Positions 1-40,989 of a stretch of DNA of 64,000 bases are shown here, piece after piece. Positions within the stretch are counted from its first letter, which is position 1. Each line of letters begins with the position of its first letter. The notes under the pieces are model-generated. The model did no database searches. It was not told where the DNA came from and saw nothing but the letters and a program-made list of their open reading frames with translations. A program made the translations under genes and the position numbers. The stretch is from Laetmonice hystrix (taxonomy: Eukaryota). The stretch covers positions 3,908,001 through 3,972,000 of the forward strand of contig OZ249436.1 in NCBI GenBank assembly GCA_965235115.1, written 5' to 3'.

Positions 1-1527
1 AAGTCTATGCTAAGATGGTGAGTGTACACCTACCGGCGGAGGTACATGATAAAGTTTATACTAAGATGGTGAGTGTACACCTACCGGCGGAGGTACATGA
101 TAAAGTTTATACTAAGATGGTGAGTGTACACCTACCGGCGGAGGTACATGATAAAGTTTATACTAAGATGGTGAGTGTACACCTACCGGCGGAGGTACAT
201 GATAAAGTTTATACTAAGATGGTGAGTGTACACCTACCGGCGGAGGTACATGATAAAGTTTATACTAAGATGGTGAGTGTACACCTACCGGCGGAGGTAC
301 ATGATAAAGTTTATACTAAGATGGTGAGTGTACACCTACCGGCGGAGGTACATGATAAAGTTTATACTAAGATGGTGAGTGTACACCTACCGGCGGAGGT
401 ACATGATAAAGTTTATACTAAGATGGTGAGTGTACACCTACCGGCGGAGGTACATGATAAAGTTTATACTAAGATGGTGAGTGCACACCTACCGGCGGAG
501 GTACATGATAAAGTTTATACTAAGATGGTGAGTGTACACATACCGGCGGAGGTACATGATAAAGTTTATACTAAGATGGTGAGTGTACACCTACCGGCGG
601 AGGTACATGATAAAGTTTATACTAAGATGGTGAGTGTAAACCTACCGGCGGAGGTACAGGATAAAGTTTATACTAAGATGGTGAGTGTAAACCTACCGGC
701 GGAGGTACATGATAAAGTTTATGCTAAGATGTACACCTACCGGCGGAGGTACATGATAAAGTCTATGCTAAGATGGTGAGTGTACACCTACCGGCGGAGG
801 TACATGATAAAGTTTATACTAAGATGGTGAGTGTACACCTACCGGCGGAGGTACAGGATAAAGTTTATACTAAGATGGTGAGTGTAAACCTACCGGCGGA
901 GGTACAGGATAAAGTTTATACTAAGATGGTGAGTGTAAACCTACCGGCGGAGGTACATGATAAAGTTTATACTAAGATGGTGAGTGTAAACCTACCGGCG
1001 GAGGTACATGATAAAGTTTATACTAAGATGGTGAGTGTAAACCTACCGGCGGAGGTACATGATAAAGTTTATACTAAGATGGTGAGTGTAAACCTACCGG
1101 CGGAGGTACATGATAAAGTTTATACTAAGATGGTGAGTGTAAACCTACCGGCGGAGGTACATGATAAAGTTTATACTAAGATGGTGAGTGTACACCTACC
1201 GGCGGAGGTACATGATAAAGTTTATACTAAGATGGTGAGTGTACACCTACCGGCGGAGGGACATGATAAAGTTTATACTAAGATGGTGAGTGTAAACCTA
1301 CCGGCGGAGGTACATGATAAAGTTTATACTAAGATGGTGAGTGTAAACCTACCGGCGGAGGTACATGATAAAGTTTATACTAAGATGGTGAGTGTACACC
1401 TACCGGCGGAGGTACATGATAAAGTTTATACTAAGATGGTGAGTGTAAACCTACCGGCGGAGGGACATGATAAAGTTTATACTAAGATGGTGAGTGTACT
1501 ACCTACCGGCGGAGGTACATGATAAAG
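1..1527. repeat. 51-bp minisatellite (~30 copies) containing the TRPA exon end and donor
   Basis: Unit gatggtgagtgtacacctaccggcggaggtacatgataaagtttatactaa; runs off the left edge. Confidence 0.97.
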
Positions 1528-4500
1528 TTGATCCATGCCATGAAGAGAGCGAGCCAGCCAGCCCGCCACTGACGCAGACACGGATAGTACCCGATCGGGT
1601 AGATGAACGCGTATGTAGTCGCAACCAGAATCAACGCTATCAGATTGAAGACGTTGAAAAAATATTTAAATCCCTAAAAAAAGAAAGAAGATCATTGGCC
1701 TACTCCATTTGGCTATAAGGGGAGGCAAGAATAAAGTGATCATACTTCCTCCGGGTATAGACTGTCTATCATATTCTGTGCACACTGTATGTACCGAAAT
1801 GGTGATTTTGTTGAATTCAAAAGGTCACAATGTCGACGATTCACACTCTTGACGATTAAAACGAAGGTTAAACACGACGAATTGTAGACCTAAATTAGTC
1901 AAAAATACCTCTTATAATGGCCATCTTGTTGTAGGCCAATTTATCACGGATTATATATTTACCTTATATCCTAAATATCGTACAAATGTCATCGATTTCC
2001 TGTGACTAAACCCCAGAAAACCGGGTGGGAAATATCCGATTTCTCTCGCAAATTTCACAAGGAAACTACACAAAAGGAAGTAATTAAATCATTGGTCACT
2101 TTATAAACTAAAATTTATATGTGAGCCAGACATCTGCCTTCGTAGGCGATACCTTTTTAAATATTAATATTTTTGTCATGGAAAGAAAGATATACAATTA
2201 CATGGACTTACTCTTTGAAGTATTTTGAAAGCTTCCCTGAAGAAGAATACGAGTATGAAGATTGTCACCCATGCTACGGTCACGTTTAGGTGGGGTTCTT
2301 TTATCCTGGTCGGCTTCATCAAACATAGCAACAATATATCTCAGTAAATTCATCACCTTCATTTTGCCATGGGAACATTCCCATGGAACATAGCAACAAT
2401 ATATCTCGGTAAATTCATCACCTTCATTCTGCCATGGGAACATTCCCAACAAACATAGCAACAATATATCTCGGTAAATTCATCACCTTCATTCTGCCAT
2501 GGGAACATTCCCATGGAACATAGCAACAATATATCTCGGTAAATTCATCACTTTCATTCTGCCAGGGAACATTCCCATGGAACATAGCAACAATATATCT
2601 CGGTAAATTCATCACTTTCATTCTGCCATGGGAACATTCCTATGGAACATAGCAACAATATATCTCGGTAAATTCATCACCTTCATTCTGCCATGGGAAC
2701 ATTCCCATGGAACATAGCAACAATATATCTCGGTAAATTCATCACTTTCATTCTGCCAGGGAACATTCCTATGGAACATAGCAACAATATATCTCGGTAA
2801 ATTCATCACCTTCATTCTGCCATGGAAACATTCCCATGGAACATAGCAACAATATATCTCAGTAAATTCATCACCTTCATTCTGCCAGGGAACATTCCCA
2901 TGGAACATAGCAACAATATATCTCGGTAAATTCATCACTTTCATTCTGCCATGGGAACATTCCCATGGAACATAGCAACAATATATCTCGGTAAATTCAT
3001 CACCTTCATTCTGCCATGGGAACATTCCCATGGAACATAGCAACAATATATCTCGGTAAATTCATCACTTTCATTCTGCCAGGGAACATTCCCATGGAAC
3101 TTAGCAACAATATATCTCGGTAAATTCATCACTTTCATTCTGCCATGGGAACATTCCCATGGAACATAGCAACAATATATCTCGGTAAATTCATCACCTT
3201 CATTCTGCCATGGGAACATTCCCATGGAACATAGCAACAATATATCTCGGTAAATTCATCACCTTCATTCTGCCAGGGAACATTCCCATGGAACATAGCA
3301 ACAATATATCTCGGTAAATTCATTCGTCAACTTCGTCTCTCCATGGGAACATTCCCATGGATAGGGATAGAGACGAAATCGGGGTTACAGGTTAGGGTAG
3401 GGCCATGGATAGGGATAGGGATTGCATTATTAGATGGTTTGGTTTTTTTCTCAGAGGAGCATCTCTGAAGTACCCAAACTTCGCCCCCCCCCCCCAACTA
3501 ATTTCTGGATACGCCCCTGCCGAGGGTTCTTTATTAAACAATGCGGAGACTGAGAGGTAGCACAGGTTTGATCGAATCAACAGAACATCATCGACATACA
3601 TCCAGAACGCTGGGACATCCCTTGTATTTATTTCCCATGGTTTTCTTTCTTTCTGATCCTGTTATTTTGTTTCCCATATCAGATATCAGATATCATTAAG
3701 AACTTGCTAGGACCTTTACCTGTTCTGGCGGGTTCTGTGCTGTTGTGTTCTCTGCTGTGGAGTTCCCTGTAATGTTTACCGTGTAGTCATGACTGAATTC
3801 AGGGCAGTAGTTTTCGTCGTGGGTCCGATTGGCCAGGACACTTCCCAGCTGAGCCGTGTAGAAGGTCAATGAGAAGAGATAACCGACGTAGATGACCAGG
3901 TTCACATAAAACGTGATTCGTCCAAACCGTACCCTGGAGTGAACAAATACGGGTTGTAAGTTGACCGGAGTGGTGATCAGTCCAACTTGTAACCAGGGGC
4001 AACCAGGGGGACCTTGTCAAAATTTTCCTGAAGTTTAGATCCTGAATAATATGATCTTGGACTTAATGTCAGGCAATATTCATGTCGTTACTCATGAAGT
4101 TTTGGTTCAGATTTTGCATGGGATTTACAAAAAGGCTCTAGAATTATATATTATATAATATTATTCCTCAACCAACATTATGGCTGGCAGCGGGCTTGTG
4201 AGTAAAACATATAGAGATGGTCGCAAATCTAGAATCGGAGTGGTCCTCGAAAAGGTTTTAGTTCGAGCTCTCCCTGTCGTTAGGATGTGTATGGGGCCGA
4301 TGTCTACTACAATGTCATTATGTTACGGGATGACATATAAAGGCCTACCATTTCTGATAGAGGATTGTTTGGCACAGCGGATGAGACAAAAGCATGTCAC
4401 GTTCATGTTGAACCATTGTCTGAAATATGAAATGAAAGGACATGTACATAAGGCAGAATGTTACACAAAATGAAAGGAAATGTACATAAGGCAGAATGTT

Positions 4501-7500
4501 ACACAAAATGAAAGGAAATGTACATAAGGCCGAATGTTACACAAAATGAAAGGAAATGTACATAAGGCAGAATGTTACACAAAATGAAAGGAAATGTACA
4601 TAAGGCAGAATGTTACACAAAAGCACTGGAAATGGCATTGAACCTTTAACATCATTCAATCATTACCAATCCATTTGATGGAGATGAATTAAGGGTATGA
4701 ATGCAGGATTTGTTCAACTCACGTTCAGGGTAAGATATGAGGACAGGATTTGTTCAACTCACGTTCAGGGTAAGGTATGAGGGCATGATTTGTTCAACTC
4801 ACGTTCAAGGTAAGGTATGAGGACATGATTTGTTCAACTCACGTTCAGGGTAAGGTATGAGGGCAGGATTTGTTCAATTCACGTTCAGGGTAAGGTATGA
4901 GGACATGATTTGTTTAACTCACGTTCAAGGTAAGGTATGAGGACAGGATTTGTTCAACTCACGTTCAGGGTAAGATATGAGGGCAGGACTTGTTCAACTC
5001 ACGTTCAGGGTAAGGTATGAGGACAGGATTTGTTCAACTCACGTTCAGGGTAAGGTATGAGCGCATGATTTGTTCAACTCACGTTCAGGGTAAGGTATGA
5101 GGACAGGATTTGTTCAACTCACGTTCAGGGTAAGGTATGAGGACAGGATTTGTTCTACTCACGTTCAGGGTAAGGTATGAGGACAGGATTTGTTCAACTC
5201 ACGTTCAGGGTAAGGTATGAGGGCAGGATTTGTTCAACTCACGTTCAGGGTAAGGTATGAAGACATGATTTGTTCAACTCACGTTCAGGGTAAGGTATGA
5301 GGGCAGGATTTGTTCAACTCACGTTCAGGGTAAGGTATAAGGGCAGGATTTGTTCAACTCACGTTCAGGGTAAGGTATGAGGACATGTTTTGTTCAACTC
5401 ACGTTCAGGGTAAGGCATGAGGGCAGGATTTGTTCAACTCACGTTCAAGGTAAGATACCGACGTTTCTGGGAGGCGGGATCGTCTGGCCCAGGGTCGATG
5501 TACTTATAGTCAAAGGTCATCTACAAATATATCATTCACGTATCTACGTGTTCAAAACGTTCTTCTAAATGAGCACTCTGTTATGATCAGTGGAGTCGGT
5601 CGAGCTTACATGTATTTTTGACAGTTGACAGTTGACAGTTTACAGTCAACATAGTGTTCAAGATCTACTTTTCTCCTTACACTGTTCGTATGACCCTACC
5701 AACGTCTCTTGTCATGTAGCAAACCATGAGATTTGAATTGCTAATAAACCGTTAAAAGATAGCAGATAACAACAGATAATGGATAATGTCTGATTATGCG
5801 ATGTGTAACCGCTAGATTCTGGACGTACCGAGAGATTGACGTCCTCGTCGTCACGGGTCGATCGTTCCACACAGTGGTCGAGTACCACCTGCACCATACA
5901 AACATTACACGTTTCAACCTCACATTGGTCACATACAACCAGGGGCAGGTTTTACTAAAGGTTGAAAATAAAGATGGCGAAAATTTAACATAGAAGTGAC
6001 TGGTTACTAGGTCGTTATTTTCGACCTAGAAACCCATTCACTTCTATGTTAAATTTTCGACGTCGTTATTTTCGACCTTTAGTAAAACCGGCCCCAGAGC
6101 CTTAGATCACTCAGTCACCGGGACCCCCTTACATACAACAGTCTGGATTTGGGTTTAGATGTGGTTTTACACTTCCGAAACATCCAGGTTCATAATCAAG
6201 ATGGTCAATGTTACTGGTGCAGAAACCGGAAGACCCTTGGAAACCACTGATCGACCTTACAGCAGCTAACTGACAAACCTTCTCAAACAACGTAACCAAA
6301 GACCCCTGGAAACCACTGACCTTACAGCAGCTAACTGACAAACCTTCTCAAACAACATAACCAAAGACCCCTGGAAACCACTGACCTTACAGCAGGTAAC
6401 TGACAAACCTTCTCAAACAACATAACCAAAGACCCCTGGAAACCACTGACCTTACAGCAGCTAACTGACAAACCTTCTCAAACAGTAACCAAAGACCCCT
6501 GGAAACCACTGACCTTACAGCAGCTAACTGACAAACCTTCTCAAACAACATAACCAAAGACCCCTGGAAACCACTGACCTTACAGCAGGTAACTGACAAA
6601 CCTTCTCAAACAACATAACCAAAGACCCCTGGAAACCACTGACCTTACAGCAGGTAACTGACAAACCTTCTCAAACAACATAACCAAAGACCCCTGGAAA
6701 CCACTGACCTTACAGCAGCTAACTGTCAAACCTTCTCAAACAACATAACCAAAGACCCCTGGAAACCACTGACCTTACAGCAGGCAACTGACAAACCTTC
6801 AAACAACGTAACCAAAGACCTCTGGAAACCACTGACCTTACAGCAGCTAACTGACAAACCTTCTCAAACAGTAACCAAAGACCCCTGGAAACCACTGACC
6901 TTACAGCAGCTAACTGTCAAACCTTCTCAAACAACGTAACCAAGAGGACCATCCATAATACGTTAGATAAAAGGCCAATAGACCAGGGGCCCGTCTCACT
7001 AAAGCCTGGTTAATAACCAGATCGTTAAGTTAACATAGGAGTGAATGGAAGGTTGCTGGTTACTGTAACCAGCAACCTTCCATTCACTCCTATGTTAACT
7101 TAACGATCTGGTTATTAACCAGCCTTTAGTGAGACGGGCACCAGGGAGCTAATGGGTTGAGAGACTTAAGTTGAGTTTGCAATTCATTTACACGTAGGCC
7201 TATCCATTTTAATGTTATTAACAATATTGTAGATGTTGTACAATTACTGTAGATGAAGATCTATACGCCTAATTTAAACAGGAATTTCGGCTTAATTCTT
7301 TCTTTCCAAAATCCTGAACTGGTCGCCGTATACGGCCTACATTATAGTTTTCATTTTAAAATGGCTTCCGACGCCCCCGAGGAGTTCTCCAGCAATTAAA
7401 GGAGGAGTATGAATTAGCGCTACAGCAATTAAAGGAGGAGTATGAGTTCGAGGCGTTCACCATTGCAACATCCGGTAGTCGCGCCACCAAGCGGTCAATT

Positions 7501-10500
7501 GGGGGAAGCCCGTGAGCGTCACGAACGCTGATACAATCTCGCCAGCTGAAACGAGACAACACGTGATGTATGAGTAATAAATGGGGTGGTGTGTATCGGG
7601 GCTAGCTTGGTAAACAACACAGAGCTCGAGTAACTCGGGGCTTCATGGAAATCTTAGCATCTGACACTCAGCTTCTGTCGGCACATAACTGGTGCTGTTA
7701 TTAGCATTGAAAAGAAGCCCAACAAATTGACGATAAACAAACTTAAGAAGATACAATCCTTAGCGTTTGCACGCACCATGGATCTATCATTAAATCTGAC
7801 AGAAGAAATATCGATAAATAGCCGACAGCCACATTGACACAGCTTGGCAAAAACAGCTACGGCAACATCTCTGTATAATGAAAAGACGAAACCCTACCCT
7901 GTATGCACAGAACTCGGTCATTTGTAAACCATTTCACATTTCGATTTGGATTGGCGGTTTATGCCTACCTAACAGCACGGATCAAAACGAGGTGGTCATC
8001 TTTATTTGTGGAGGAAACCGGAACACCCGGGTAAAAGACTCGACATTGCAGCAAGTATATATGTATGTCAATAACTATGATAAATTTATGTTATCACGTT
8101 AGAAAGCAAATAGCTTTCATTACGGTAACAATGTTTCCTATCGTGTTAAGTACTCATATTTTACCCGCTGCGAGGGAACTTCAAGTACATAACATAAAAA
8201 AAAGAGTTCTTTATAAAAAAAAATCGTTTGTAGCAGATTAAGAGGTAAACATTTATTTCGCATGAATATTCCAATGATTGTTGTCCCTTCTCGTTCATCT
8301 TGTTCTCGTTTTCACCATTTTATCGTGTTTTTTTACCTTTTGTGTTTCACCATAGTAATGGCGACGTCGTTGTTAAGGTTGTCGATGGCCAGATCGAGGG
8401 GCGCCTGGTCGTAGGTGTTTTTAACAGTGACGATTGCCCGTTTATCCAGTAACAGTTGGGCCGCCTCGACATGACCTCCCGCGCATGCGTAGTGCAACGA
8501 TGAGTTCTATCATAAAGGTAAACACATAAATTGCTGAAGGGGGGAAGCCACCTAGGGCGAGTAACGTACTAGAATGTTGGTCCAAGGCCTATCGAGTTTC
8601 AGTACCAGGCATTCATCTATTTTTTATATGTTTACACGGGGTAGGCTAAACATAATAATTTATTATAATACTAGTAGGCCTACCAAGTCCTCATCAATCA
8701 AGCGTGGTTAAGACAACCCCTATAAAGGCCGTTACCATAGTTACGTTAAGTGCCTTACGAGGGATGTTATTAGATCTAACACTACAATAAATGGTTCTAT
8801 GGCAACCCAACTTCGTCTCGGCCCAAGGAGTAGGCCTATAGTGATTGTAGACCCCACCTACATCTCTACAGACATACAGGTTTAGTTACGTTCCTCTCAC
8901 CGTAGATTCTACCAACCGTTCATACACCATGAACAGACCTACAGGTTTAGTTACGTTCCTCTCACCGTAGATTCTACCTCTGAGGTCGTGCAGGAGGCTT
9001 ATTTGGTTTTCGTTTTATAAAATGTAATGTAGGCCTAATGTACACCACTTATTTTATCCATATTTAAAGACTGGTTGTTATAGGGGGTGGCTGGCTGAGG
9101 CTAACCTTGAGTTTGTCCGTATCGTTGACCATGGCGTGATTTTCCAGAAGGATACGCATGGTGGTCGTATGACCTTCAGCAGCCGCAACCATCAGCGCCG
9201 TGCGGTGGTCGTCGTCCCTGGCAACCATAACATGTCAGTAGGCAAAATTAGTGACAGACTAAACCTACCAGAGTTTATCGGTAATGGGGCTGATCAAATC
9301 TGTGAACATTTCAATAACTTAAACGCCTATATAAACGCTCTGAAATCTACGCTAGGTGAATTTTGCTAAGGCCTTCACCCTCTCAACTTAGGGATAAGTG
9401 CATCTAGAGCTACAGGTCAAGGTCACTGGTGAGAAACCGATCCAACCTTGCAGAAGTTTTCAGGAACAGTAATGGTCATGTAATTTCAAGTATTAGGTTA
9501 AATATGGTGCTGACAGCATTGTCTACAAACATACATTGTATATCGCGATATTTGTAACCTACCGACAGGAGATGTCAGCGCCGAGGGAGAGCAACACCTG
9601 CGCCACCTGGTGGTGCCCATTGGCAGCAGCCAGGAGGAGTGGGCTCCGTCCGTCCACATCGCAGTCATTGGTTTCGTGGGAGCTGGCGTGGATCAGGGCC
9701 TCTACACAGTGAACGTTATCACACCTATCACAAAGAAGGGCAAGTCATAATTCTAAAAACTCCTTTATTAACAGTTATACTATATCTAACACTGGGATGA
9801 TAAGATAGCCCTACGGTTGATCCAACGCTGCTAGATCATACCCTTGAGGAGCAGTGGGGTCGAGTGAGTCTTTGTCACTCCCATTATGACCTTAAATGTG
9901 ATTTTACTTTTAGAATATTTAGGCCTACAATGCAGTTTAATAAATAAATAATCTTGTTTCAATAGTGGGAAATCTCTTCTTAAATGTGGCGCCGAGAGGA
10001 GGGCGGGTCGGGAGGTCCTTACTGAGCGGCCATGTGAAGCGGCGTTCGTTCCTCCGTATCTTTGGCGTCCGTCCGGGCGCCGTACTCAAGCAGCGTCTTC
10101 AACACCTTCAATCATAGAGAATGCGCTCACTGACGTCATAGATCATTATACGTCACGTGACGTCATACATCACGTCATACAACACCTTCAATCATAGACA
10201 TAATGCGCTCACTGACGTCATAGATCATTATACGTCACGTGACGTCATGCATCGCGTCAGAGGGCGGGTTCACCATAGCGTCACGTAACGTCATGATACA
10301 TCACGTCATACAACACCTTCATTCATAGAGGAGGCGCTTACTGACATCATAGATCATCATATGGCATGTGACGTCATACAGGACGATATACAACACCTTG
10401 AAGCAGAGGGAGGACGCGCCCACTGACGTTAAGAATCGAAGAGGACAATGGGACAGCTCAGTTTATTTTGTTCCAGGGTAGGACCTTAGAAAAATGCGCG

Positions 10501-13500
10501 GGGTCCAAGCAAGGAAGACCCTACGGACTATATGTCCCTGAATGTCCTACCTACCAGCACGTTACCCCTTAACGTCCTACCGACCAGCAGGTTACCCCTG
10601 AACGTCCTACCTACCAGCACGTTACCCCTGAACGTCCCACCTACCAGCACGTTACCCCTGAACGTCCTATACCAGCACGTTACCCCTGAACGTCCTATAC
10701 CAGCACGTTACCCCTGAACGTCCTACTTACCAGCACGTTACCCCTGAACGTCCTACCTACCAGCACGTTACTCCTGAACGTCCTACCTACCAGCACGTTA
10801 CCCCTGAACGTCCTATACCAGCACGTTACCCCTGAACGTCCTACCTACCAGCACGTTACCCCTGAACGTCCTACTTACCAGCACGTTACCCCTGAACGTC
10901 CTACCTACCAGCACGTTACTCCTGAACGTCCTATACCAGCACGTTACCCCTGAACGTCCTATACCAGCACGTTACCCCTGAACGTCCTACCTACCAGCAC
11001 GTTACCCCTGAACGTCCTATACCAGCACGTTACCCCTGAACGTCCTACCTACCAGCACGTTACCCATGAACGTCCTATACCAGCACGTTACCCCTGAACG
11101 TCCTATACCAGCACGTTACCCCTGAACGTCCTACCTACCAGCACGTTACCCCTGAACGTCCTACCTACCAGCACGTTACCCCTGAACGTCCTACCTACCA
11201 GCACGTTACCCCTGAACGTCCTACCTACCAGCACGTTACCCCTGAACGTCCTATACCAGCACGTTACCCCTGAACGTCCTATACCAGCACGTTACCCCTG
11301 AACGTCCTACCTACCAGCACGTTACCCCTGAACGTCCTACCTACCAGCACGTTACCCCTGAACGTCCTACCTACCAGCACGTTACCCCTGAACGTCCTAC
11401 CTACCAGCACGTTACCCCTGAACGTCCTATACCAGCACGTTACCCCTGAACGTCCTACCTACCAGCACGTTACCCCTGAACGTCCTACCTACCAGCACGT
11501 TACCCCTGAACGCCCTACCTACCAGCACGTTACCCCTGAACGTCCTACCTACCAGCACGTTACCCCTGAACGTCCTACCTACCAGCACGTTACCCCTGAA
11601 CGTCCTACCTACCAGCACGTTACCCCTGAACGTCCTATACCAGCACGTTACCCCTGAACGTCCTATACCAGCACGTTACCCCTGAACGTCCTACCTACCA
11701 GCACGTTACCCCTGAACGTCCTATACCAGCACGTTACCCCTGAACGTCCTACCTACCAGCACGTTACCACTGAACGTCCTACCTACCAGCACGTTACCCC
11801 TGAACGTCCTACCTACCAGCACGTTACCCCTGAACGTCCTATACCAGCACGTTACCCCTGAACGTCCTACCTACCAGCACGTTACCCCTGAACGTCCTAT
11901 ACCAGCACGTTACCCCTGAACGTCCTACCTACCAGCACGTTACCACTGAACGTCCTACCTACCAGCACGTTACCCCTGAACGCCCTACCTACCAGCACGT
12001 TACCCCTGAACGTCCTATACCAGCACGTTACCCCTGAACGTCCTATACCAGCAGGTTACCCCTGAACGTCCTACCGACCAGCACGTTACCCCTGAACGCC
12101 CTACCTACCAGCACGTTACCCCTGAACGTCCTACCTACCAGCACGTTACCCATGAACGTCCTACCTACCAGCACGTTACCCCTGAACGTCCTACCTACCA
12201 GCACGTTACCCCTGAACGTCCTACCTACCAGCACGTTACCCCTGAACGTCCTATACCAGCACGTTACCCCTGAACGTCCTACCTACCAGCACGTTACCCC
12301 TGAACGTCCTACCTACCAGCACGTTACCCCTGAACGTCCTACCTACCAGCACGTTACCCCTGAACGTCCTATACCAGCACGTTACCCCTGAACGTCCTAC
12401 CTACCAGCACGTTACCCCTGAACGTCCTACCTACCAGCACGTTACCCCTGAACGTCCTACCTACCAGCACGTTACCCCTGAACGTCCTACCTACCAGCAC
12501 GTTACCCCTGAACGCCCTACCTACCAGCACGTTACCCCTGAACGTCCTATACCAGTACGTTACCCCTGAACGTCCTATACCAGCACGTTACCCCTGAACG
12601 TCCTACCTACCAGCACGTTACCCCTGAACGTCCTATACCAGCACGTTACCCCTGAACGTCCTATACCAGCACGTTACCCCTGAACGTCCTACCTACCAGC
12701 ACGTTACCCCTGAACGTCCTACCTACCAGCACGTTACCCCTGAACGTCCTATACCAGCACGTTACCCCTGAACGCCCTACCTACCAGCACGTTACCCCTG
12801 AACGTCCTATACCAGCACGTTACCCCTGAACGTCCTACCTACCAGCACGTTACCCCTGAACGTCCTATACCAGCACGTTACCCCTGAACGCCCTACCTAC
12901 CAGCACGTTACCCCTGAACGTCCTATACCAGCACGTTACCCCTGAACGTCCTACCTACCAGCACGTTACCCCTGAACGCCCTACCTACCAGCACGTTACC
13001 CCTGAACGTCCTATACCAGTACGTTACCCCTGAACGTCCTGTACCAGCACGTTACCCATGAACGCCCTACCTACCAGCACGTTACCCCTGAACGTCCTAC
13101 CTACCAGCACGTTACCCCTGAACGTCCTACCTACCAGCACGTTACCCCTGAACGTCCTATACCAGCACGTTACCCCTGAACGTCCTATACCAGCACGTTA
13201 CCCCTGAACGTCCTATACCAGCACGTTACCCCTGAACGGCCTACCTACCAGCACGTTTCCTGCGTGGGCGGCGTAGTGTAGAACAGTCTGGTCGTTTTTA
13301 TCAGTCGCCTCCAGCAGAGCCGTGCCACAGTGCTGCAATCAGACAAACATGGACCAATTCCAAAACGTTGTGATTTTGGCAGTATATCGAAGGCCCGGAA
13401 ACGATGTAAAATCAAGGCTATGGTCGTTCTAAATAACCACATGAACAAGGCATGGACGTTATATGATTATATTAACTACAGATTTGCTGGAATCTTTCAC

Positions 13501-16500
13501 CAAGTAGCCTACATAAATACTTATAAACGGAGACGATTTCGTTTTTCAAGTTTAGGTTTTAAGACTGATTTACGGAGGGAGGCGTACTTCTTTCTGAAAC
13601 ACTGTCTGCTGTCTGTAAGGCATGCGCATCCCTCTCACGGCAAGACGGGTATGGTTTTAACAAAATTAGTTTTACGGTCATTCCAACCAGGAAATGTTAA
13701 CAAGACGCCTTAGTGATGCGTCCATACCTCACAGGAGTCATCAGAAACTTCAGTAACAGACCACTAGGATGCTGAGAGTCTAGTTTTGTCGTCTTGCCGA
13801 GGGTGTTGCAGGTCATGTTCCTCCTGGACTGTTACATGCAGTAGATCACAATGTCGGCATACATGGAGGTCTCAGTACTATACACTGAAAAACTTTGATT
13901 CGTCTTAATGACTAATAACGGTTTGTCATCCTCCCCTTCCGAGATGACAAACTTAAATCAAAGTTTTTCAGTGTAACGCGTGTATGTTATTTGTCTGGGT
14001 AGTTAACTGACTATCTCGGTGCAATATCACTCAGGGACGTATTCGGGGTAAATGGGCATGCCCCCTGGTGTTATCCGGGGGTGCATCCACTATGGACCAA
14101 CCAGAAAAGGAGATGTAAACAATCATTCCGTCCCACAGGGAACACCATTCGTGGTCAATGATGGACTTGTCACTTACGATGCTAGTACTACATGTCTCTT
14201 CCAGCCGGCTTGAATCTCCTAGCCCTATTCTCTGTAACCAATCGTAGCCAGGATATATACAGGCCGCCCCCACCGCCGCATGAAGCTTCCTTCAGCTATC
14301 TTTACTACACATTATTTGGTATTTTATATAGCTGAGGCCTAAAGCAGTCGGTCGACGGCAGCCAATGACGGAGATATGACAGAAGACGCGAGGAGAAATC
14401 AAAACGTGTAAAGAAAACTGCGCCATGTATAGGTCTCTGCTTGTATGTTCATAGCGCATCTTCATGGTCCTTATGTAATATTAGAGGACTATAGACTGTA
14501 ATATTAGAGGACTATAGACTGTAATATTAGAGGACTATAGACTGTAATATTAGAGGACTATAGACTGTAATATTAGAGGACTATAGACTGTAATATTAGA
14601 GGACTATAGACTGTAATATTAGAGGACTATAGACTGTAATATTAGAGGACTATAGACTGTAATATTAGAGGACTATAGACTGTAATATTAGAGGACTATA
14701 GACTGTAATATTAGAGGACTATAGACTGTAATATTAGAGGACTATAGACTGTAATATTAGAGGTTCCGTTCATTTAGCATTGGGAGGCCCATTGAAAAAA
14801 CGTTCTAACTGATAACTTCACAATTGTTGTTCTCTTTGCTATCAAACTTACTATACATCAGAATCAACATCTCTTATGTCAGAAAAAATACACTTCATAC
14901 TTAAGAAATATTTAATTGTCAAAAGAAAGGCCGATGTTTGGAGAGGTGTACGCTCGCCCTATGTTAAACCAGTGGGGAATTGTGACGTAACGGAAGTTGC
15001 ATGTCGCCAGCGGTCTGACCTAGTTAGACCGAACCTCGTTTTCGGTCGCGAGACTTACGCTCCCAAGGAATAATTCATAAATCAATCAAAATTCAAATAT
15101 TCCCCCTTCTACTTCTATAATAATAATAGATGTTATATAATAGGTAAGTGACATTCCAATATCATTCTGAGAACAGCTTTCCACAGTTTTCCGCAAATTG
15201 TCTTTTTAAGACAATCACAATAATTGTTATAATGCCGTAGACCTACGGGATGTCGACATGCAGCGAGCTGAGGCTGACCTTTAGGAGTGCGAGTAGTGTG
15301 TTGTAATGTGCGAACTGGACGGCCCAGTGTAAGGCCGTCATGAGGGAGCCATCCATCTCTGCCACCTGAGCTCCATGGTCGAGCAGGTACTGGACCGTCT
15401 CAGTCTGACCCTTCCAACACGCACAATGTAATGGCGACTTGTTCTTCTTGTCCTTGGCGTTCAGATCGGCACCCTTGGTTTGTATCCAAATTAAAATAGA
15501 ATATAAATAAATCATGAAATTATTGTCATTTTATATTGTACCTGGATATGCTTTTACGAATTTACTTTAGTTTCAGACTTTTAAACGTTTATTCAAACAC
15601 AAAGTGAATGAAAATAATACCGGTATGATAATTATTGGGGGGGGGGGGGGGGCATTACTCTTACTGGGAGATCGGTGGAAAATTTACATAGCTACTTACA
15701 TAGCTAACAAGTAGTTCGATCAGGTCAACTTTGTTATAAAGCGCAGCTCTGAAAAAAAAACAATTATCTCTTTGTATATAAAGCCTACTGCATATTGACC
15801 TAAACCGAGGTCAGATATCGAATTGTTCTACTCGACCCTCACAGTTATCCTACTCGACCCTCACAGTTATCCTACTCGACCCTCACAGTTATCCTACTCG
15901 ACCCTCACAGTCATCCTACTCGACCCTCACAGTTATCCTACTCGACCCTCACAGTTATCCTACTCGACCCCCACAGTTATCCTACACGACCCTCACAGTT
16001 ATCCTACTCGACCCTCACAGTTATCCTACTCGACCCTCACAGTTATCCTACTCGACCCTCACAGTTATCCTACTCGACCCTCACAGTTATCCTACTCGAC
16101 CCTCACAGTTCCGTTATAGAGAGGTTAGCGATTGTAAGCAGACAGTAGGCCGAGGCAGTACATCACGTTACCTGTGAATGGGTGACATCGCATCTATGTC
16201 TGGTTGATTGACGTCTGCTCCACGAACGATCAACAGTTTGGTGATCTCCGTGTTTCCTGCGATAGCCGCTAGGTGGAGTGGCGTCATCAGGTTGTGCTGG
16301 AAGCAAGTTCAACCAGACACCAGACGTAGGTCTGGGTGAGTATACGCGCCATGCCCTCCCACATTAGATATATGTTTGAAAAGTCTCGTGCAGTGTGTTT
16401 TTTACATGACCTAGAGTTGTTTATGTTTTCTAATTTGACAAACTTGGATATTTTTCATGCTGAGGCACTGAATTTATGTGGTGTATGTAGGCTTAAAATA

Positions 16501-19500
16501 TCTGCCTACCTTTTGGCCATTGACATCTGCAAAATGGTTGAGCAATTGCTCAGATGCCTGTGAAATGAATACAAAACGTGTCAGAAATGTGCAGGCCTCT
16601 CAAACACATGGTTTATGACAGCAAATGCAGTGGACCCTTTTGCCGCACAGAGGCCCCCATAGATCTACCGGTCCTATACTATACACCAGGTGGAGCCACA
16701 CTTTTTGCCCATATTGTTTCACTTTCAGCACACTAGGTGGACTGAAGTATACTAAATTGTACTTCAGACGACGCATGCAAAAAGTTAACTTTCCAAGCGA
16801 TACACAGAAAAGACCTAATGCCCCTTTTTACACCCTGTGTCAGTTTAAATGCCATACCTTGGCGCCAACTATATACTCACGTCTGTCTGTCCATTTTGTA
16901 CCGCTAGATGGAGCGCGGTGTTGCCCTCGTTATCGCACGCTTGGACAAAACTGCGTTCGCCTGGGCCGTGTTTTCGTACTGGATGGAAATATACGTAAAA
17001 CGTCCTAGTTACGACACTGGAAGAAGACTACTGGAGGGAAAGAAGTAAAACGTCCTATTTACGACACTGGAGGAAGGCTACGCCCTGTTATAGCGTCTTC
17101 AATTGATTGTACAATGAACTATACAGTCAATAAAATCGAATAACAACAACCTGTGTCTGCTCAGTGGAATCGTTTTAGGCCGAGAGTTACAGGGGCCCCG
17201 TCAATTAAAAGCCACAAAATCGACCCCCTCTCATATTAAACAAGATTTACCTGCAATCTCGTAAACAATTTGAAGCAAAACAACTGCGCATATAGTTGTA
17301 ATACGGAGCAGCGTGGAGCATTGCATGGTAACTGCCTTCCTTCGCTCCACGCAGCCATGGGAAACTGAATTTGTAATTTTCTTACATTTGTTGAAATTAT
17401 TTGATCGCCATATTTAAATCTCATGTGGCTAAGGATGAAAGGTACGTTTCATAGTTGGGGGGAATTAATGGAGTCCCTTTAACCGTCAAGCCCAAACATG
17501 GAAAGGGGATTGAAGAGTCGAAAGTGAGCATGGTAAGTTTTGACCTCTTCAAAACCAACGGCTAAACTTTTGTTTAGCGAACTCTTCCGGAAGGTTTTCC
17601 GATGGTTATTATGGTGTGACCGTTGCCGCTAACGGTCTGGGGTCATAGCGGGGATAGAGGTGACTTACCAGCTCGTAACAGAAGGTCTATGACGTCATAG
17701 CGGGGATAGAGGCGACTTACCAGCTCGTAACAGGAAGTCTATGACGTCATAGCGGGGATAGAGGTGACTTACCAGCTCGTAACAGAAGGTCTATGACGTC
17801 AATATGTCCCTCCATGGCTGCCCACATCAATGCTGTCACCTGATTGACGTCACGGTGGGCGACAATCGCTCCCCTCGATATCTACAAGAGGCAGTTATTA
17901 ACTGTAGTGGTCACACTTACAGCAAACAGATCCCAACACGGCTGTGCCTTTTGCCCATTTTCTCCACACGTTGTCATAGATTTTCTGTTGCTAATGGGGC
18001 CTAACCCGAAATGTACTTTACCAACCGTGGCATGTTTTCAGTGACGGGCTTTCGACGCCCACCGACTACCGAAAGGTGCCCCCCCCCCTTTCCTGAGATC
18101 CTGGATCCGCCACTGTTTTTTTATAATATAAGTTAAGGAGAGCTTGGACTGTGCGGTGAGGATGCTCTGGGTACTAATTAGTGCCGAGTGTTTTCGTTAG
18201 GTGGTGCGCGGGTGCGTACGCTCTCTGGGCGGCCTGCTCCCCCTGGCTACCTGCCCCTTGACTACCTATTCAATATAGGCCTACATAGACAATAGCCTGG
18301 TCCCCGCCGCCTTACCATACGCATCCGCTTGATGTTAGGCCCGGTGATGGCTAACAGAAAGCTGTAAAACGGAAGTGGTGATCTCCAAGCACTTCCGCCT
18401 CGGAGCTAATCACTTCCGCCTCCGGTCCGTTGGTCAGCGTTAACAGAGTGATTGACTTCTGCTTGGAGCGTGGCCGGGAGTGGCCAACAATAGCAACATG
18501 CCCCTGCGTATGCAGACCGTAGCAGGTGGTGGGACTGCTGACGCTATGTTTACATCCAGAAAAGCGAGGACATTTAACACTTGTATTTTAAAGGGATTGA
18601 TGAAAATATTTGTGTCTTGTTGGAGAAATACGGAGGGTACGGAACTATACCTCGTTTGCGTCCATGTTTTCGATGGGCCAATCACAATGCTCGCTTCGAT
18701 TGGCCTACGCCAGGCTCTATATACGAAGTTAATATAGAGCTGGGGACCCGGCTACATAGACAATAACTCTTACAGTACCATCTATAACCTTGAGTCCCCA
18801 GTAGGCCTATTTCTTCACTTACCAACAGTTCACAGATCCTGACATTGCCCTGAATGGCGGCCATGTGTAACGGAGTGGTCTGGTCATGGTCCACGGCGTT
18901 CACATTACAACTGGTAACGCTAAGTAACATCTGTAAAGAAATCCATATATCTTTTGTAGCCTTTTGAAATAATCTGTTTGTAGCAGAGCGAGTACAAACA
19001 CTATACACTCAGAGCCGTAAATTTGACGGGAATTTGGCCGAGGCGAGCGTCGAGGGCGCGAGTCGTTCATGTGGCGGGGGTCTAAGAGGTCTCATCCAGA
19101 AAATTTTTGCAATTAATCTTCTATTTTATTTTGGAAATGTCGCTGAGGCAACTGCCTCAGCTGCCTCAATGCAATTTACGGCCCTGTACACTTAAAAATA
19201 GGCTGATGTGTCAGATATTGCAAGATCAGGACATGTAGTAGGCCTTGCTAATTGGTACAGAAAGAGTAACTTGTGCTTCATTTTCGTGGTTGATCGAACT
19301 TGATCCACTCAGATGCGACTAATAGGCCTAATGAAGAAACAATTACCATTTTTGAAACCCAAAGCAATGAAAAGCAATGAAAAACAATGAAACTGTCATG
19401 GCTGTGGTCATGGATTGCATAATCAGTTCAGATCTCTGGATCTTGCTTAAGCCTGCTTGGTGCTGCTGACGAATGGTGCGGCCACATCAGTTCACGCCCC

Positions 19501-20389
19501 AGCCACAGAGTGGCGCTCTGCGTCTAGGCAAATTCCTTGACCAAGAAGGCCTACTTGGTGGGGTGTGAACTGTGGACTTGCGTACCTTGGTGACGGTGTC
19601 GTGCCCCCTCCGGGTGGCATAGTGCAGTGGGGTGCGACCCTTGAAGTCGGCCACGTTGATCTCAGCGCCCTGCGCAAGCAAAGACTGGACAGCGTCGGAC
19701 GCGTTGTAACGACAAGCTAAGTGTAGGGGGCGCTGCTCGTCTGGCCCGCCCTTCACGTTCACAGCTGGGTAAACACAGACATATCATGTCAACATTCGGA
19801 CCCCGATCTAGGGGGGGGGGGCAATTCCCCCTTTTACCAAAAAATGTGTAAAGGGGCAGAAAAGGGAAGAAAGGACAACACGGATCGGGGCCCCGTTTCG
19901 GAAATCCTGGATTCGCGCTCTGATAGGTCTATAAGAATCGGCTGAATTGCCCATACAACGTAGGCCTATAGGGCCTAAATGTGCCAACAGTAGCCTATAG
20001 GTCTAGGCCCCCTTAAAGCCTAGGCAAAAGATACCTTATAGATCCATATAGCCTACTTGTCAATGTTATGTCTTAAGCCCCCTCGTTCTGTTGCGTAGAT
20101 TTCCGGCTTTAGTGGAGGGACTGCATGCTAATGTTTTTTAGATTTCATCCGGGGTATGGGGAAAGAGACAAAAGCGTCGACTCTTTCGTGCATGAAGTTG
20201 CTTTTCATTTAGCCTAACAATTAGTAACCCTTAGTATACGACATAGATATTTACCCCCCAATTATTAATGTTTAGGGTCTAAGTAGGCCTAGATAGGCCC
20301 TAAGTAGGCCTAAAGGGGTCTACGCCTGTATTCCAAACATTTATTTTTAAACCAATATACGATCTAAACACGTTAAATGTTCGCTGGAT

Positions 20390-20461
<72 letters not shown>

Positions 20462-20621
20462 TACCTGCGCCAGCATCCACCAAGCACCTGACGACCTCGA
20501 CACGGTTGTACCTGGCGGCGTGGTGCAGAGCCGAGAAACCGTCGTCGTCAACGTCATGGACCGAGTTCTCGTTCAACACGATATGACCTTCAACCACGTC
20601 CAGCATGCCGTCACGGGCAGC
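1507..20621 (-). CDS. TRPA1: TRPA1-like ankyrin-repeat TRP cation channel (multi-exon; 3' part continues left of the window; N-terminus unresolved)
   Basis: Phase-consistent GT-AG exons (minus): 20621-20465, 19764-19586, 18930-18823, 17881-17773, 16978-16881, 16557-16510, 16296-16172, 15748-15700, 15473-15279, 13332-13249, 10105-10023, 9724-9563, 9217-9106, 8506-8337, 7545-7461, 5888-5829, 5520-5443, 4419-4349, 3933-3720, 2313-2212, 1673-1507. Translation gives ~16-17 ankyrin repeats (TPLHxA-type), linker 'LPDVAMVVLDHC..FDYKYIDPGPDD..LLSHPLCQTILYQKW', S1 'FYVNLVIYVGYLFSLTFYT', S2 and S3-S4 'QWRAGWLALFMAWINFIMYLRR'. Orthology (TRPA1 vs another TRPA clade) not tested. Confidence 0.9.
2321..3360. 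repeat. 65-bp minisatellite (~16 copies) abutting a TRPA acceptor
   Basis: Unit aacatagcaacaatatatctcggtaaattcatcaccttcattctgccatgggaacattcccatgg, with internal hairpin CCATGGGAA/TTCCCATGG. Confidence 0.97.
4430..4622. repeat. 38-bp tandem repeat (~5 copies) abutting a TRPA acceptor
   Basis: Unit aatgaaaggaaatgtacataaggcagaatgttacacaa. Confidence 0.95.
4692..5457. repeat. 40-bp minisatellite (~19 copies) containing the TRPA exon end and donor
   Basis: Unit gggtaaggtatgaggacaggatttgttcaactcacgttca. Confidence 0.97.
5943..6094. mobile_element. Fold-back MITE with CAG flanks (PIF/Harbinger-like)
   Basis: TIR gggcaggttttactaaagg / cctttagtaaaaccggccc, imperfectly palindromic throughout; CAG on both sides. 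Confidence 0.75.
6232..6945. repeat. 65-bp minisatellite (~11 copies)
   Basis: Unit gacccctggaaaccactgaccttacagcagctaactgacaaaccttctcaaacaacataaccaaa. Confidence 0.97.
6987..7141. mobile_element. Near-perfect ~155-bp palindromic MITE with CAG flanks
   Basis: gggcccgtctcactaaag...ggttac T gtaacc...ctttagtgagacgggcac; CAG at 6984-6986 and 7142-7144. Confidence 0.85.
10100..10430. repeat. Degenerate ~70-130-bp repeat (4 copies) containing a TRPA acceptor
   Basis: caacaccttca(atcataga)...cactgacgtcatagatcat recurs at ~10100, 10180, 10311, 10391. Confidence 0.85.
10536..13256. repeat. 30/26-bp two-variant minisatellite (~90 copies) containing the TRPA exon end and donor
   Basis: Units ctacctaccagcacgttacccctgaacgtc (30 bp) and ctataccagcacgttacccctgaacgtc-type short variant, interspersed. 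Confidence 0.97.
13883..13973. mobile_element. Short MITE, CACTG...CAGTG termini, TA flanks
   Basis: ta-cactgaaaaactttgatt ... aatcaaagtttttcagtg-ta. Confidence 0.7.
14475..14763. repeat. 23-bp tandem repeat (~12-13 copies)
   Basis: Unit gtaatattagaggactatagact. Confidence 0.97.
15827..16110. repeat. 22-bp tandem repeat (~13 copies)
   Basis: Unit ctactcgaccctcacagttatc. Confidence 0.97.
17642..17800. repeat. 52-bp repeat (3 copies) containing the TRPA exon end and donor
   Basis: Unit gtcatagcggggatagaggtgacttaccagctcgtaacagaaggtctatgac. Confidence 0.95.
20394..20460. repeat. (TCTG)n microsatellite directly after a TRPA donor
   Basis: Minus strand reads GTAA-GACA-GACA... Confidence 0.95.
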
Positions 20622-21074
20622 CTACAACAGTCGCCGATAGAGGGCGTTCTTACCATGTCTGGAGGGCCATGTAGGTCTACAGGTTTATGGATGAGGTGCC
20701 TACATGTGGCTCTCCATTATAGCCCATAGACTCTATATATACACACATTTGGAATAATTACCATGTTGGGATCTGGGGGGCAGGGGGCCATGGCCCCCAT
20801 GAGGGAAGAAGAAAAGATTTTTTGTGGGTTCTCTAATTAGGCCTTATTAACCCCGAACTCCAGTATTGTAAATGTCCCCTCAGCTGCTCCCTCCCCTCAA
20901 GGAAATCCTGGATCCGGCCTGATTACATCATTGGTCGTATTTAATACAGCTATATGCCTCTAGGGCCCCTATATCGCACAACTAGACCTATATGACCAAT
21001 AGGCAGACAGCAATATACCAATAGGTCTACTGCAATACGGTAGCTCTTCCAGCAGACATTTAACCCTCCCCCAT

Positions 21075-21385
21075 CTATACAATGGCCCCTAGGTCTATAC
21101 ATTGGCCCATAGGTCATACATTGTCCCATAGGTCTATACATTGTCCCAAAGGTCTATAGGTACATTGTCCCATTGGCCCCTATAGGTCTATACATTGACC
21201 CATAGGTCTATACATTGGCCCCTAGGTCTATACATTGACCCATAGGTCTATACAATGGCCCCTAGGTCTATACATTGTCCCATAGGTCTATACATTGTCC
21301 CATAGGTCTATACATTGTCCCATTGGCCCCTATAGGTCTACACATTGTCCCATAGGTCTATACATGGCCCATTGGTCTACACAGT
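21075..21385. repeat. ~20-bp degenerate tandem repeat
   Basis: Unit ggtctatacattgtcccata. Confidence 0.9.
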
Positions 21386-22697
21386 GTCCTGCTTCACCAA
21401 GTAGCTGGCGCATGAAAGTGGGACGGTGGCGTTGGCGTATAGTTGGTTTGGGCCTGATACTTCATGTCATGTGAAGAGGTGCAGCAAAGTTGGGGCCTTA
21501 CTGTTCGAGTCCACTAGGCTCCTATATATTTTCTGTTTCGTTCCATTCCTAAAAGGTCAACCTTGTTAAAAGAATCATGTCACCTATTTCATATAGATTT
21601 TACATATTGGCGAAAATACTGCTTAATTGTCTGGTAATTATGTTCCATAGCACTGCCTACTTGACTGATTGGATGCCGTGAATATTTTTTTTTTTTTAAT
21701 ATTTGGAATGACTCGCGTCTTTTTCGAGACCTGCAGCCCACCTACGCGATAGAGTTTTAGCCGGGCGATTTTACACCCTTTTCACAGAACGCGAGACTAT
21801 ATATAGCCGCAATCACGTGATCATCTCACCTGTTGCATGCAACGTTATGCCTGCAGGTCAGACATTCCCGATGGCGGAAGGCAGCGTTGTTTTTGAGTGT
21901 TCTCGACACCAAATGTGAAATGTGAAGGTGACTGCATTTTCTTTGCTGTACGTAATGTAAACCTAGGAAGTAACCTCTGGACAGAAGGTGCATAGATTTT
22001 GACGAGGTAAGCATGAAACAGGCCGAACTGGCTTCCCGGAACGCTCAACCAGGGTATCATGATTCCTTTAAGCATGATGCCCAGTAAAGAGACGCCTAGT
22101 AAAGAGAAGATACGGTCCTATCTATCCTGATAGAGTCCTTCTATCTATCCTTAGCAAAAACCTACGTTATAATTATGTAAATAACCCTAACTATACACAA
22201 ACCGAATTACCTACACGCACACCCATCATGTGGTGTCAACACCTACTTCTAAAATAGTCCGTTTCCATTCTATCTTAGTAACTCCTGTGACAACATGCCA
22301 TCAGGAGGCGTACTCTACGACCTGGAAACCTTTCCCCAAGTACATAGAGGTGCACACAAAAATATCTCGCGGAGCGAACATTTTGCAGGTATGCCTGATA
22401 ACTCCATGAAAACTTTGACTGAGGACTTTTTTTTTGGGGGGGGGGGGGGTCTGGGGTCCGATGTTAGGGATTAGATCTAGGTCAGGTCTTGGACGAGAGA
22501 TAGATTTCAGGGTTACCAGTGTCGGAGCGGTAGGGGTTGACGGGGTGGTTTCCATCAGAGGGCCTCATCCTGTCAGCGATCTAAGTGGTAAAGAGCAAGG
22601 TGCCACAAATGTTCAACGCCTAATTCTTGACCGAAGCCAAATTGACCAGAACTTTTTAAAATTACATAACATAAACTACCTAGCATTGTTTATTCAT

Positions 22698-22748
<51 letters not shown>

Positions 22749-23099
22749 CTTATTTTTATTATTTTACTTATTTATGTATTTTTCATTGGATTTATTTGGG
22801 GGAACAATCAGTCCCCCTGAAAATTCTTCATTCACTGTAAGTGCACTTCATGTGCTGCAGTATATCACACCTTCTGGTATAATCCAGGTTTATTTATAAA
22901 CTATACAGCACTTCTAACATGATTCACCTCGGACACGGCTACCCAATTTACAAAGGTTTAATTCAAGCCCAACTATATACTGATTGATGTAGCTGGGTGC
23001 ACTCTACCCGTTAGCCTCCTATCAGGTTTCAAGTGTTTCAAGCAACAGCAGCTGTTGGGGTAGGCCAACGGTAGTGACAAACTGGGGCACTGCGATATT

Positions 23100-23560
23100 T
23101 CAGCGAGCGAGGGACCGAGTCACTTAGTGAGCGAGTGGTGATTCTAGGCCCTGCCCGCGCCCCCTCGCTATATTGAATTAGTGAGGGGGCCACAGTGAGC
23201 GAGGGGCCGAGTCGTTCAGTGAGCGAGTGGTGATTCTAGGCCCTGCCCGCGCCCTCTCGGTATATTGAATTAGTGAGGGGGCCACAGTGAGCGAGGGGCC
23301 GAGTCGTTCAGTGAGCGAGTGGTGATTCTAGGCCCTGCCCGCGCCCTCTCGGTATATTGAATTAGTGAGGGGGCCACAGTGAGCGAGGGGCCGAGTCGTT
23401 CAGTGAGCGAGTGGTGATTCTAGGCCCTGCCCGCGCCCCCTCGCTATATTGAATTGGTGAGGGGGCCACAGTGAGCGAGGGACCGAGTCGTTCAGTGAGC
23501 GAGTGGTGATTCTAGGCCCTGCCTGCGCCCCGTCGGTATATTGAATTGGTGAGGGGGTCC
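23100..23560. repeat. 92-bp GC-rich tandem repeat (5 copies)
   Basis: Unit cagtgagcgaggggccgagtcgttcagtgagcgagtggtgattctaggccctgcccgcgccctctcggtatattgaattagtgagggggcca. Confidence 0.95.
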
Positions 23561-23597
23561 CGATGGCTCTGTGGTCGGCACTGGCTCATGCATGACA

Positions 23598-24640
23598 ACA
23601 GGGCCTGCCTCTCCCCCTGCATGGAGCCCTCTCCGAGCCAGATGTGAGGAGGGTTATCAGTTACCTGTTGTAAGGTGAATGGATTTCTCGATATTATGAC
23701 CACAAGGCCTCTCCCCACTGCATGGAGCCCTCTCCGAGCCAGATGTGAGGAGGGTTATCCGTTACCTGTTGTCAGGTGAATGGAGTTCTCGATATTATGA
23801 CCACAGGGCCTCCCCCCCTGCACGGGTTGGGGCCCTCTCTGAGCCAGATGTGAGGAGGGTTATCCGTTACCTGTTGTCAGGTGAATGGAGTTCTCGATAT
23901 TATGACCACAGGGCCTCTTCCCACTGCATGGGTTGGAGCCCTCTCTGAGCCAGATGTGAGGAGGGTTATCAGTTACCTGTTGTCAGGTGAATGGATTTCT
24001 CGATATTATGACCACTATGCCTCTCCCCCTGCATGGGTTGGGGCCCTCTCTGAGCCAGATGTGAGGAGGGTTATCAGTTACCTGTTGTCAGGTGAATGGA
24101 GTTCTCGATATTATGACCACTATGCCTCTCCCCCTGCATGGGTTGGGGCCCTCTCTGAGCCAGATGTGAGGAGGGTTATCCGTTACCTGTTGTCAGGTGA
24201 ATGGATTTCTCGATATTATGACCACAGGGCCTCTCCCCCCTGCATGGGTTGGGCCCCTCTCTGAGCCAGATGTGAGGAGGGTTATCCGTTACCTGTTGTC
24301 AGGTGAATGGAGTTCTCGATATTATGACCACAGGGCCTGCCTCTCCCCCTGCATGGAGCCCTCTCTGAGCCAGATGTGAGGAGGGTTATCAGTTACCTGT
24401 TGTCAGGTGAATGGAGTTCTCGATATTATGACCACAGGGCCTCTTCCCACTGCATGGGTTGGAGCCCTCTCTGAGCCAGATGTGAGGAGGGTTATCAGTT
24501 ACCTGTTGTCAGGTGAATGGAGTTCTCGATATTATGACCACAGGGCCTCTTCCCACTGCATGGGTTGGAGCCCCCTCTGGGCCAGATGTGAGGAGGGTTA
24601 TCCCTTACCTGTTGTCAGGTGAATGGATTTCTCGATATTT
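23598..24640. repeat. ~105-bp tandem repeat (~10 copies)
   Basis: gagccagatgtgaggagggttatc...ctcgatattatgaccac recurs every ~101-106 bp. Confidence 0.95.
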
Positions 24641-33725: not shown

Positions 33726-40972
<7,247 letters not shown>

Positions 40973-40989
40973 CTTGCCGCTCGCCGGGT

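Follow-up and report, generated by a model that had tools for sequence, protein, structure and literature searches.

In the TRPA-like gene of the window (the whole stretch of 64,000 nucleotides that was analysed), minisatellites repeatedly cross exon–intron borders and carry copies of the splice sites with them. We read these as mirage-type arrays that arise as a neutral by-product of repeat instability, and put the probability of this reading at about 0.65. The repeat class is known, though little studied; the TRPA case brings in a probable annelid host and stands out by its density. Array density and short collapsed introns account for most of the overlap with splice junctions, while a surplus at donors and the greater length of junction-spanning arrays are better matched by tolerance and persistence than by a special process of birth. 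The TRPA-like gene is not alone in this pattern: the flanking ABCG-like and TMC-like genes and one calcium-channel gene show it too, and such arrays are common in some genes but not in all. In practice, hundreds of perfect spare donors can mislead gene predictors and read mappers.

The TRPA-like gene and its arrays

The window lies on a 73.8-Mb chromosome, about 3.9 Mb in from its start, in an assembly of 627 Mb and 35 contigs. Judged from its sequence, the host gene is TRPA-like, and its reading frame is intact when the exon-side splice site is taken at each array, which suggests that this site may be the one normally used. The part within the window (1507–20621, minus strand) has 21 homology-supported exons: 20621–20465, 19764–19586, 18930–18823, 17881–17773, 16978–16881, 16557–16510, 16296–16172, 15748–15700, 15473–15279, 13332–13249, 10105–10023, 9724–9563, 9217–9106, 8506–8337, 7545–7461, 5888–5829, 5520–5443, 4419–4349, 3933–3720, 2313–2212 and 1673–1507. 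These join into an open chain of 818 amino acids with zero stops. Seven further exons left of the window edge, where we extend window coordinates leftward as negative numbers, bring the total to 28 homology-supported exons and 1,100 amino acids, a chain that is colinear with the protein P0014 over 1,112 columns at 55% identity. Exon borders were set by hand and confirmed through the open chain and homology.

The precomputed domains of P0014 are ankyrin and Ion_trans (PF00520); our own Pfam search gave ankyrin matches on four of seven TRPA exons and no match on three membrane-region exons. Hallmarks of TRPA channels are a long N-terminal ankyrin run, a six-helix channel domain and a TRP-like helix. 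We presume the TRPA label and such a helix for this gene; homologue searches returned no named proteins among the matches, a PDB search with one 26-aa exon gave no match, and an Rfam scan of the window found nothing reaching the gathering score. Two probable 5' exons (24748–24609 and 20699–20654, together covering 20654–24748 on the minus strand) are uncertain because an in-frame link to the exon at 20621 needs a GT-AG intron of 32 nt, and they were excluded from the statistics. An attempt to place the 5' end of the gene with an open reading frame at 28013–27765 and an acceptor at 24799 gave no in-frame chaining.

Between the first and last supported exon lie 17 minisatellites, together 14.1 of 30.5 kb; the census admitted periods above 10, one 10-bp three-copy row being excluded. 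Over all arrays, including a 106-bp one upstream of this range, TRF periods are 22–106 and matches 83–100%. Under a strict rule, by which the end unit must include at least three exon nucleotides, seven of the 17 span a splice junction—six donors and one acceptor. Four donor arrays had been described in an earlier note on this DNA as built from the end of the adjacent exon, and this is borne out. The 52-bp array over donor 17773 (17642–17801, minus strand) has 29 exon nucleotides in its first unit and two spare donors equal to the real one. The 30/26-bp array over donor 13249 (10536–13257, minus strand) has nine exon nucleotides and 92 spare donors, of which 55 match the real donor exactly and 32 are of a weak variant form. 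Twelve exon nucleotides enter the 40-bp array over donor 5443 (4704–5454, minus strand), where 17 of 18 spare donors equal the real one, and 23 enter the 51-bp array over donor 1507 (1–1529, minus strand), which runs to 65 copies, most of them left of the window, and keeps GT in 60 of 64 spare donors. The remaining spanned donors are at −4405 (22 bp) and −6027 (42 bp).

Three acceptor arrays had also been claimed, and one of them stands: the array of ~80–82-bp units over acceptor 10105 (10100–10400, minus strand) takes in the AG and six exon nucleotides, is the single strictly spanned acceptor, and has spare acceptors upstream of it, at 80, 211 and 291 nt. The other two, a 65-bp array of 16 copies (2322–3361, minus strand) and a 38-bp array of five copies (4430–4622, minus strand), merely abut, stopping 8 nt short of exon 2313 and 10 nt short of exon 4419 with no acceptor copy. 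Both belong to a further five arrays (50, 38, 65, 42 and 33 bp) whose end lies no more than 20 nt from a junction, the other three being looser spans: a 50-bp two-copy duplication at acceptor 16978 (16977–17081, minus strand), with the AG plus two exon nucleotides and upstream AG sites that outscore the real one; a 42-bp array at −5692, which opens with a degenerate donor unit and keeps GT in none of four copies; and a 33/45-bp region in which the acceptor, together with the start of its exon, is present as two scattered copies. The 12-bp duplication of donor 15700 (15684–15706, minus strand) is real, as had been noted, and its in-frame spare donor (+4 codons) has a PWM score of 2.5 against 6.1 for the real site. 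Equally as claimed, three arrays, listed without strand, are unanchored: the mid-intron 65-bp (6230–6943) and 23-bp (14474–14763) arrays, and a 22-bp array (15828–16110) that lies 61 and 79 nt from the closest junctions. Overlooked earlier were the 50-bp acceptor duplication at 16978, a 106-bp array over donor 24609 of a probable 5' exon (23622–24644, minus strand; nine of nine spare donors weaker than the real one), and the junction arrays beyond the window.

The array units are mutually unrelated and local, not one dispersed family. Among 21 units no pair shares a word of more than 12 nt, which agrees with the earlier view that position is the shared feature, and the units have no match elsewhere in the portion of this genome that we examined. 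Each array arose in place from a different 20–110-bp piece of the gene, and we take the seeds to be ordinary local tandem duplications. That spliced RNA or cDNA served as the template for seeds while the junction was being repaired is highly improbable. In two donor arrays a word of 9 or 10 nt does recur at the beginning of the following exon; however, only these two of 12 rank high, words of 9–10 nt also match unrelated exons, and one of the two shared words is the junction itself. The units moreover consist of exon end plus intron start, which is the genomic form and not the spliced one.

Least probable of all is that the arrays are assembly artefacts. Contigs of four runs were compared with window positions 16115–20390, the part that contains the 52-bp array and the 50-bp duplication; there, contig depth over the 52-bp array was 160–202 compared with 37–51 just to its right (three runs of one sample, possibly the source), and the 50-bp duplication lies inside single contigs that differ by one or two letters (one also has a distant 7-base insertion). 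Variant units are also interspersed in higher-order patterns, which argues against an artefact.

Junction overlap within and beyond the gene

Our null model collapses each array to one unit and places seeds randomly, barring those wholly within exons. An ungapped junction-duplication detector was dropped in favour of these TRF-based tests; it missed first-unit indels and let array interiors enter the null. The permutation of TRF arrays against junctions that the earlier note had proposed, carried out at gene scale, gives a split answer: seven spans of 17 exceed the 2.37 expected under a uniform null (P = 0.0049), but not the 4.84 expected under an own-intron null (P = 0.15). Counting arrays that span or finish within 20 nt, 12 of 17 compare with 3.75 (uniform, P = 2e-5) and 7.32 (own-intron, P = 0.007), and the latter excess speaks against geometry alone. 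Collapsing reduces the gene to 17 kb, in which there are 55 junctions and about one array per collapsed kb; with density this high and junctions so many, many seeds cross a junction through geometry alone. Copies wholly within an exon would be purged, whereas intronic or junction-crossing copies would be retained, since their extra units turn into intron.

The TRPA-like gene had been chosen for its apparent enrichment, and the tests were therefore moved to DNA outside the range of the earlier note. In the 3' part of the gene, left of the window, two of six arrays span a junction (0.70 expected). An ABCG-like gene 36–40 kb left of the window and a TMC-like gene 32–40 kb to its right, with Pfam matches on four of eight exons submitted, have five of 12 arrays spanning against 3.4–4.5 expected (P = 0.24 at 3.4); the first three TMC-like exons gave no chaining. 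The earlier statement that neighbouring housekeeping genes have no such arrays holds for the adjacent RPL3 cluster; these two flanking genes do have them. In the ABCG-like gene one array runs across the stop codon, which shows that the crossing of a harmless coding border does not require a splice site. Pooled with the panel described next, the regions outside the earlier range give seven spans against 5.45 expected (P = 0.31).

A panel of 60 internal exons, chosen from 268 kinase and ion-channel matches and taken with 250-nt flanks, has none of its 118 junctions spanned, where 1.3 would be expected from eleven random 10-kb loci and 15 at the TRPA rate. The automatic count of one in 118 was corrected by hand to zero—the donor of exon L053 is U12-type and was missed by the matrix, and its array starts about 11 nt beyond. 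Fisher's test of the panel against TRPA gives P = 0.0015 before this correction and 0.00025 after it. Arrays within 20 nt are found at four or five of the 118 junctions against 2.4 expected (five if the acceptor of exon L045, probably misplaced, is counted). Twenty of the 60 exons had been picked for their position within ~5 Mb of a chromosome end; these show no spans, so nearness to a chromosome end is insufficient by itself.

Donors and acceptors differ. Out of sample, six donors are spanned where 2.7 would be expected (P = 0.06, with half of the total expectation assigned to donors). Over the TRPA-like, ABCG-like and TMC-like genes, which include the gene that prompted the test, donor spans number 10 against 2.9 (P = 0.0009), while acceptor spans, at two against 2.9, are at or below chance; the split between donors and acceptors is 10 to 2 (P = 0.039), or 14 to 5 by a lenient count (P = 0.064). 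Spanning arrays are also longer than the others, with medians of 683 and 283 bp (n = 12 and 17, one-sided P = 0.022). On another chromosome, a 20-kb stretch of a calcium-channel gene has one array that spans a junction and two that lie near one, all at donors; three of its seven arrays start at a donor or no more than 20 nt away, with 0.6 expected (P = 0.025), the stretch having been picked after two of the three had already been seen.

These counts bear on the general process proposed in the earlier note, a nucleation of duplications at exon borders. Donors would be the main starting points, and chromatin, replication or DNA lesions coupled to splicing could be the cause. Such a start is favoured by the uniform-null excesses in TRPA, the out-of-sample donors, the calcium-channel stretch chosen post hoc and the near-junction count of the panel. 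It is opposed by the panel's unspanned junctions, the missing overall excess out of sample and the acceptors at or below chance, and the TRPA excess shrinks once short introns are modelled. Nucleation at exon borders is therefore weakly supported, and we think it unlikely to be the explanation. A further proposition—that in this genome tandem duplications are born, or preferentially kept and expanded, at 5' splice sites some two to three times more than geometry predicts, with acceptors spared—is one we entertain tentatively. As the donor excess and the span-or-near excess make pure geometry insufficient, our preferred reading, neutral repeat instability, also requires the steps of tolerance and persistence set out in the next section.

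The TRPA-like, ABCG-like and TMC-like genes carry 1–2 arrays per collapsed kb, compared with 0.39 at random loci and none at window positions 40001–50000. That these three genes, unlike the RPL3 cluster, are array-rich weighs against our preferred reading: CpG o/e and GC3 of the panel exons do not predict arrays (P = 0.84 and 0.82), and unit GC content, 0.30–0.64 compared with 0.42 for unique intron, explained nothing.

Spare splice sites and their probable tolerance

Over nine arrays, GT is kept in 241 of 249 donor-context copies; 142 of these lie within 1–17800, in line with the more than 100 decoy sites estimated earlier. Site matrices built from 34 donors and 36 acceptors (TRPA and RPL3) give rough scores, by which most spare donors equal the real site and weaker ones occur in the 106-bp, 12-bp and 42-bp (−5692) arrays and in the 26-bp variant. 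An in-frame stop lies 4–60 nt into each donor-array intron, so only the first spare donors of the 12-bp and 30/26-bp repeats could lengthen the protein; both score weak, and the one in the 30/26-bp array is in frame and then followed by a stop. Nearly all spare donors, if used, would lead to a stop or frameshift. Acceptor copies are found in the 80-, 50- and 33/45-bp regions, and some score at least as high as the real acceptor. The TRPA protein is colinear with P0014 at each array-bearing junction, and no new intron or exon extension relative to P0014 was seen at these junctions.

By analogy with experiments on human F7, the most upstream of the duplicated donors would be chosen, so that downstream copies are silent whatever their number. 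Spare acceptors sit upstream of the real one and are probably less well tolerated. Spare acceptors that score at least as high as the real one nevertheless persist, which counts against the neutral reading. An array whose end unit is exonic could not be deleted from that side, and junction-tied arrays would consequently persist and lengthen.

Alternatively, the spare sites may be kept by selection, tuning TRPA splicing or level via copy number or coupling to NMD; we consider this very unlikely. The retention of GT in nearly all copies, mostly at full strength and with a stop or frameshift as the usual outcome of use, speaks for such tuning, and human 6-16 and CBS do make use of spare donors (PMC1557585). 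However, young homogenised arrays retain GT without selection, some spare sites have decayed (GT in 0/4 copies of the 42-bp array, all weaker in the 106-bp array, a weak 26-bp variant), and arrays of the same kind occur in unrelated neighbouring genes. The excerpts of the amphioxus study report no aberrant splicing (PMC3087553).

Relation to known junction repeats

Tandem duplications of exon–intron borders were named mirages in amphioxus, in Adh3 and the globins BflGb6 and BflGb9, where, as far as the excerpts of the report go, RT-PCR suggested normal splicing and a model of intron gain was proposed (PMC3087553). The TRPA arrays resemble them in that units span exon–intron borders, at donors and acceptors and several per gene, and many units retain GT or AG; unit sizes overlap as well (10–160 bp in amphioxus, 12–106 bp in TRPA) (PMC3087553, in part). 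We find in TRPA the features of the class: head-to-tail units, an end unit over a real border (7/17), a repeated splice signal and local units. Unlike in the amphioxus passages, the host is a probable annelid, and the largest arrays reach 65–93 copies and up to 3.3 kb. Length instability was demonstrated for amphioxus and normal splicing indicated by RT-PCR, whereas the TRPA arrays are known here as genomic sequence.

Donor-spanning VNTRs are also described in human genes: F7 intron 7 (37 bp), 6-16/IFI6, CBS intron 13, LMNB2 and PDGF (PMC1557585, in the passages available). Splicing of F7 takes the most upstream donor, in preference to identical copies further down (PMC1557585). The architecture is similar—a first unit made of exon end and true donor, followed by identical pseudo-sites—and the F7 unit holds four exon nucleotides, as the 22-bp TRPA array does. 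These passages describe one such array per human gene, compared with six to nine in TRPA, and first-site choice, experimental in F7, is for TRPA an analogy (PMC1557585). In the Rogers model, introns are gained through tandem duplication of proto-splice sites (mirage version in Fig. 7 of PMC3087553, seen in part). A duplicated GT or AG beside an exon is the raw material of that model, but TRPA, colinear with its homologue, has neither a new intron nor an exon extension. Our search of the open-access literature, with subscription papers and supplements outside its scope, found mirages in the amphioxus paper only and no annelid report.

Should the donor excess hold across the whole genome, mutation and selection at splice sites could be told apart, and the 5'-to-3' choice of donors could be tested in an invertebrate. 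Donor-biased duplication, if true, would make this genome, with mirages common in its array-rich genes, a natural experiment on a large scale: it could test 'first donor wins' beyond mammals and the idea that splicing marks DNA mutationally. Mirages, so far a lancelet oddity, would then become a genome-wide class in a spiralian.

As to the host, which its mitochondrial code and gene order make a probable annelid, a dominant annelid mitochondrial order exists, although the passages available of PMC10405356 do not spell it out. The mitochondrial locus of this genome uses code 5 and reads nad3-trnS1-nad2-cox1-trnN-cox2-trnD-atp8-trnY-cox3. This is the common annelid mitochondrial order and not the amphioxus order.

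Arrays at coding borders beyond TRPA

Tandem minisatellite arrays that cross or abut coding borders are found in several other genes. In the ABCG-like gene to the left of the window, the final codons and the stop codon lie inside the first unit of a 61-bp array of 10.7 copies (L014:4063-4713). To the right, in the TMC-like gene, a 60-bp array of 20 copies (L018:6007-7207) spans an acceptor and takes in 54 nt of exon. A 45-bp array of 24 copies at a further locus (L017:112-1186) also spans an acceptor, apparently extending into an exon of a minus-strand gene, and in a calcium-channel gene on another chromosome (L053, on G000:C8) a 45-bp array begins about 11 nt past a U12-type donor. Within the window, no supported exon border was found near four arrays: a complex 80/45-bp array (26206-27215), a 92-bp array (23101-23557), a 20-bp array (21074-21383), and a 35-bp array (60104-61053).

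The compact gene cluster and the RPL3 intron

A compact gene cluster with few arrays occupies 33690-52100 of the window. It contains RPL3 on the minus strand and, around 41000-45400, a small gene on the plus strand. Also in the cluster are an ORF without introns (47462-48139), for which PF06979 is present in one homologue, and, around 49000-51200, a lysine-rich gene on the minus strand. The last intron of RPL3 holds six minus-strand copies of an element of about 135 nt (33895-35840), whose fold has two hairpins separated by an H-box-like motif and whose 3' end carries ACA; the element is a candidate amplified H/ACA snoRNA. In Rfam, four of the six copies weakly match SNORA41—at 23-28 bits, far under the gathering score of 80.

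Candidate exons in the TRPA-like gene

In the adjoining DNA that holds the 3' part of this minus-strand gene (L011), a 75-nt phase 0 segment (L011:7277-7351, minus strand) whose AG and GT sites are good codes for a hydrophobic helix. This helix is similar to that of the next exon, an 87-nt minus-strand exon encoding the helix preceding the pore loop (L011:6854-6940), and judged from sequence the two may form a mutually exclusive pair. At the 5' end, excising a 32-nt minus-strand GT-AG gap (window 20622-20653) places a probable 46-nt exon in frame with the first ankyrin exon; 32 nt is an unusual size for an intron, being so small.
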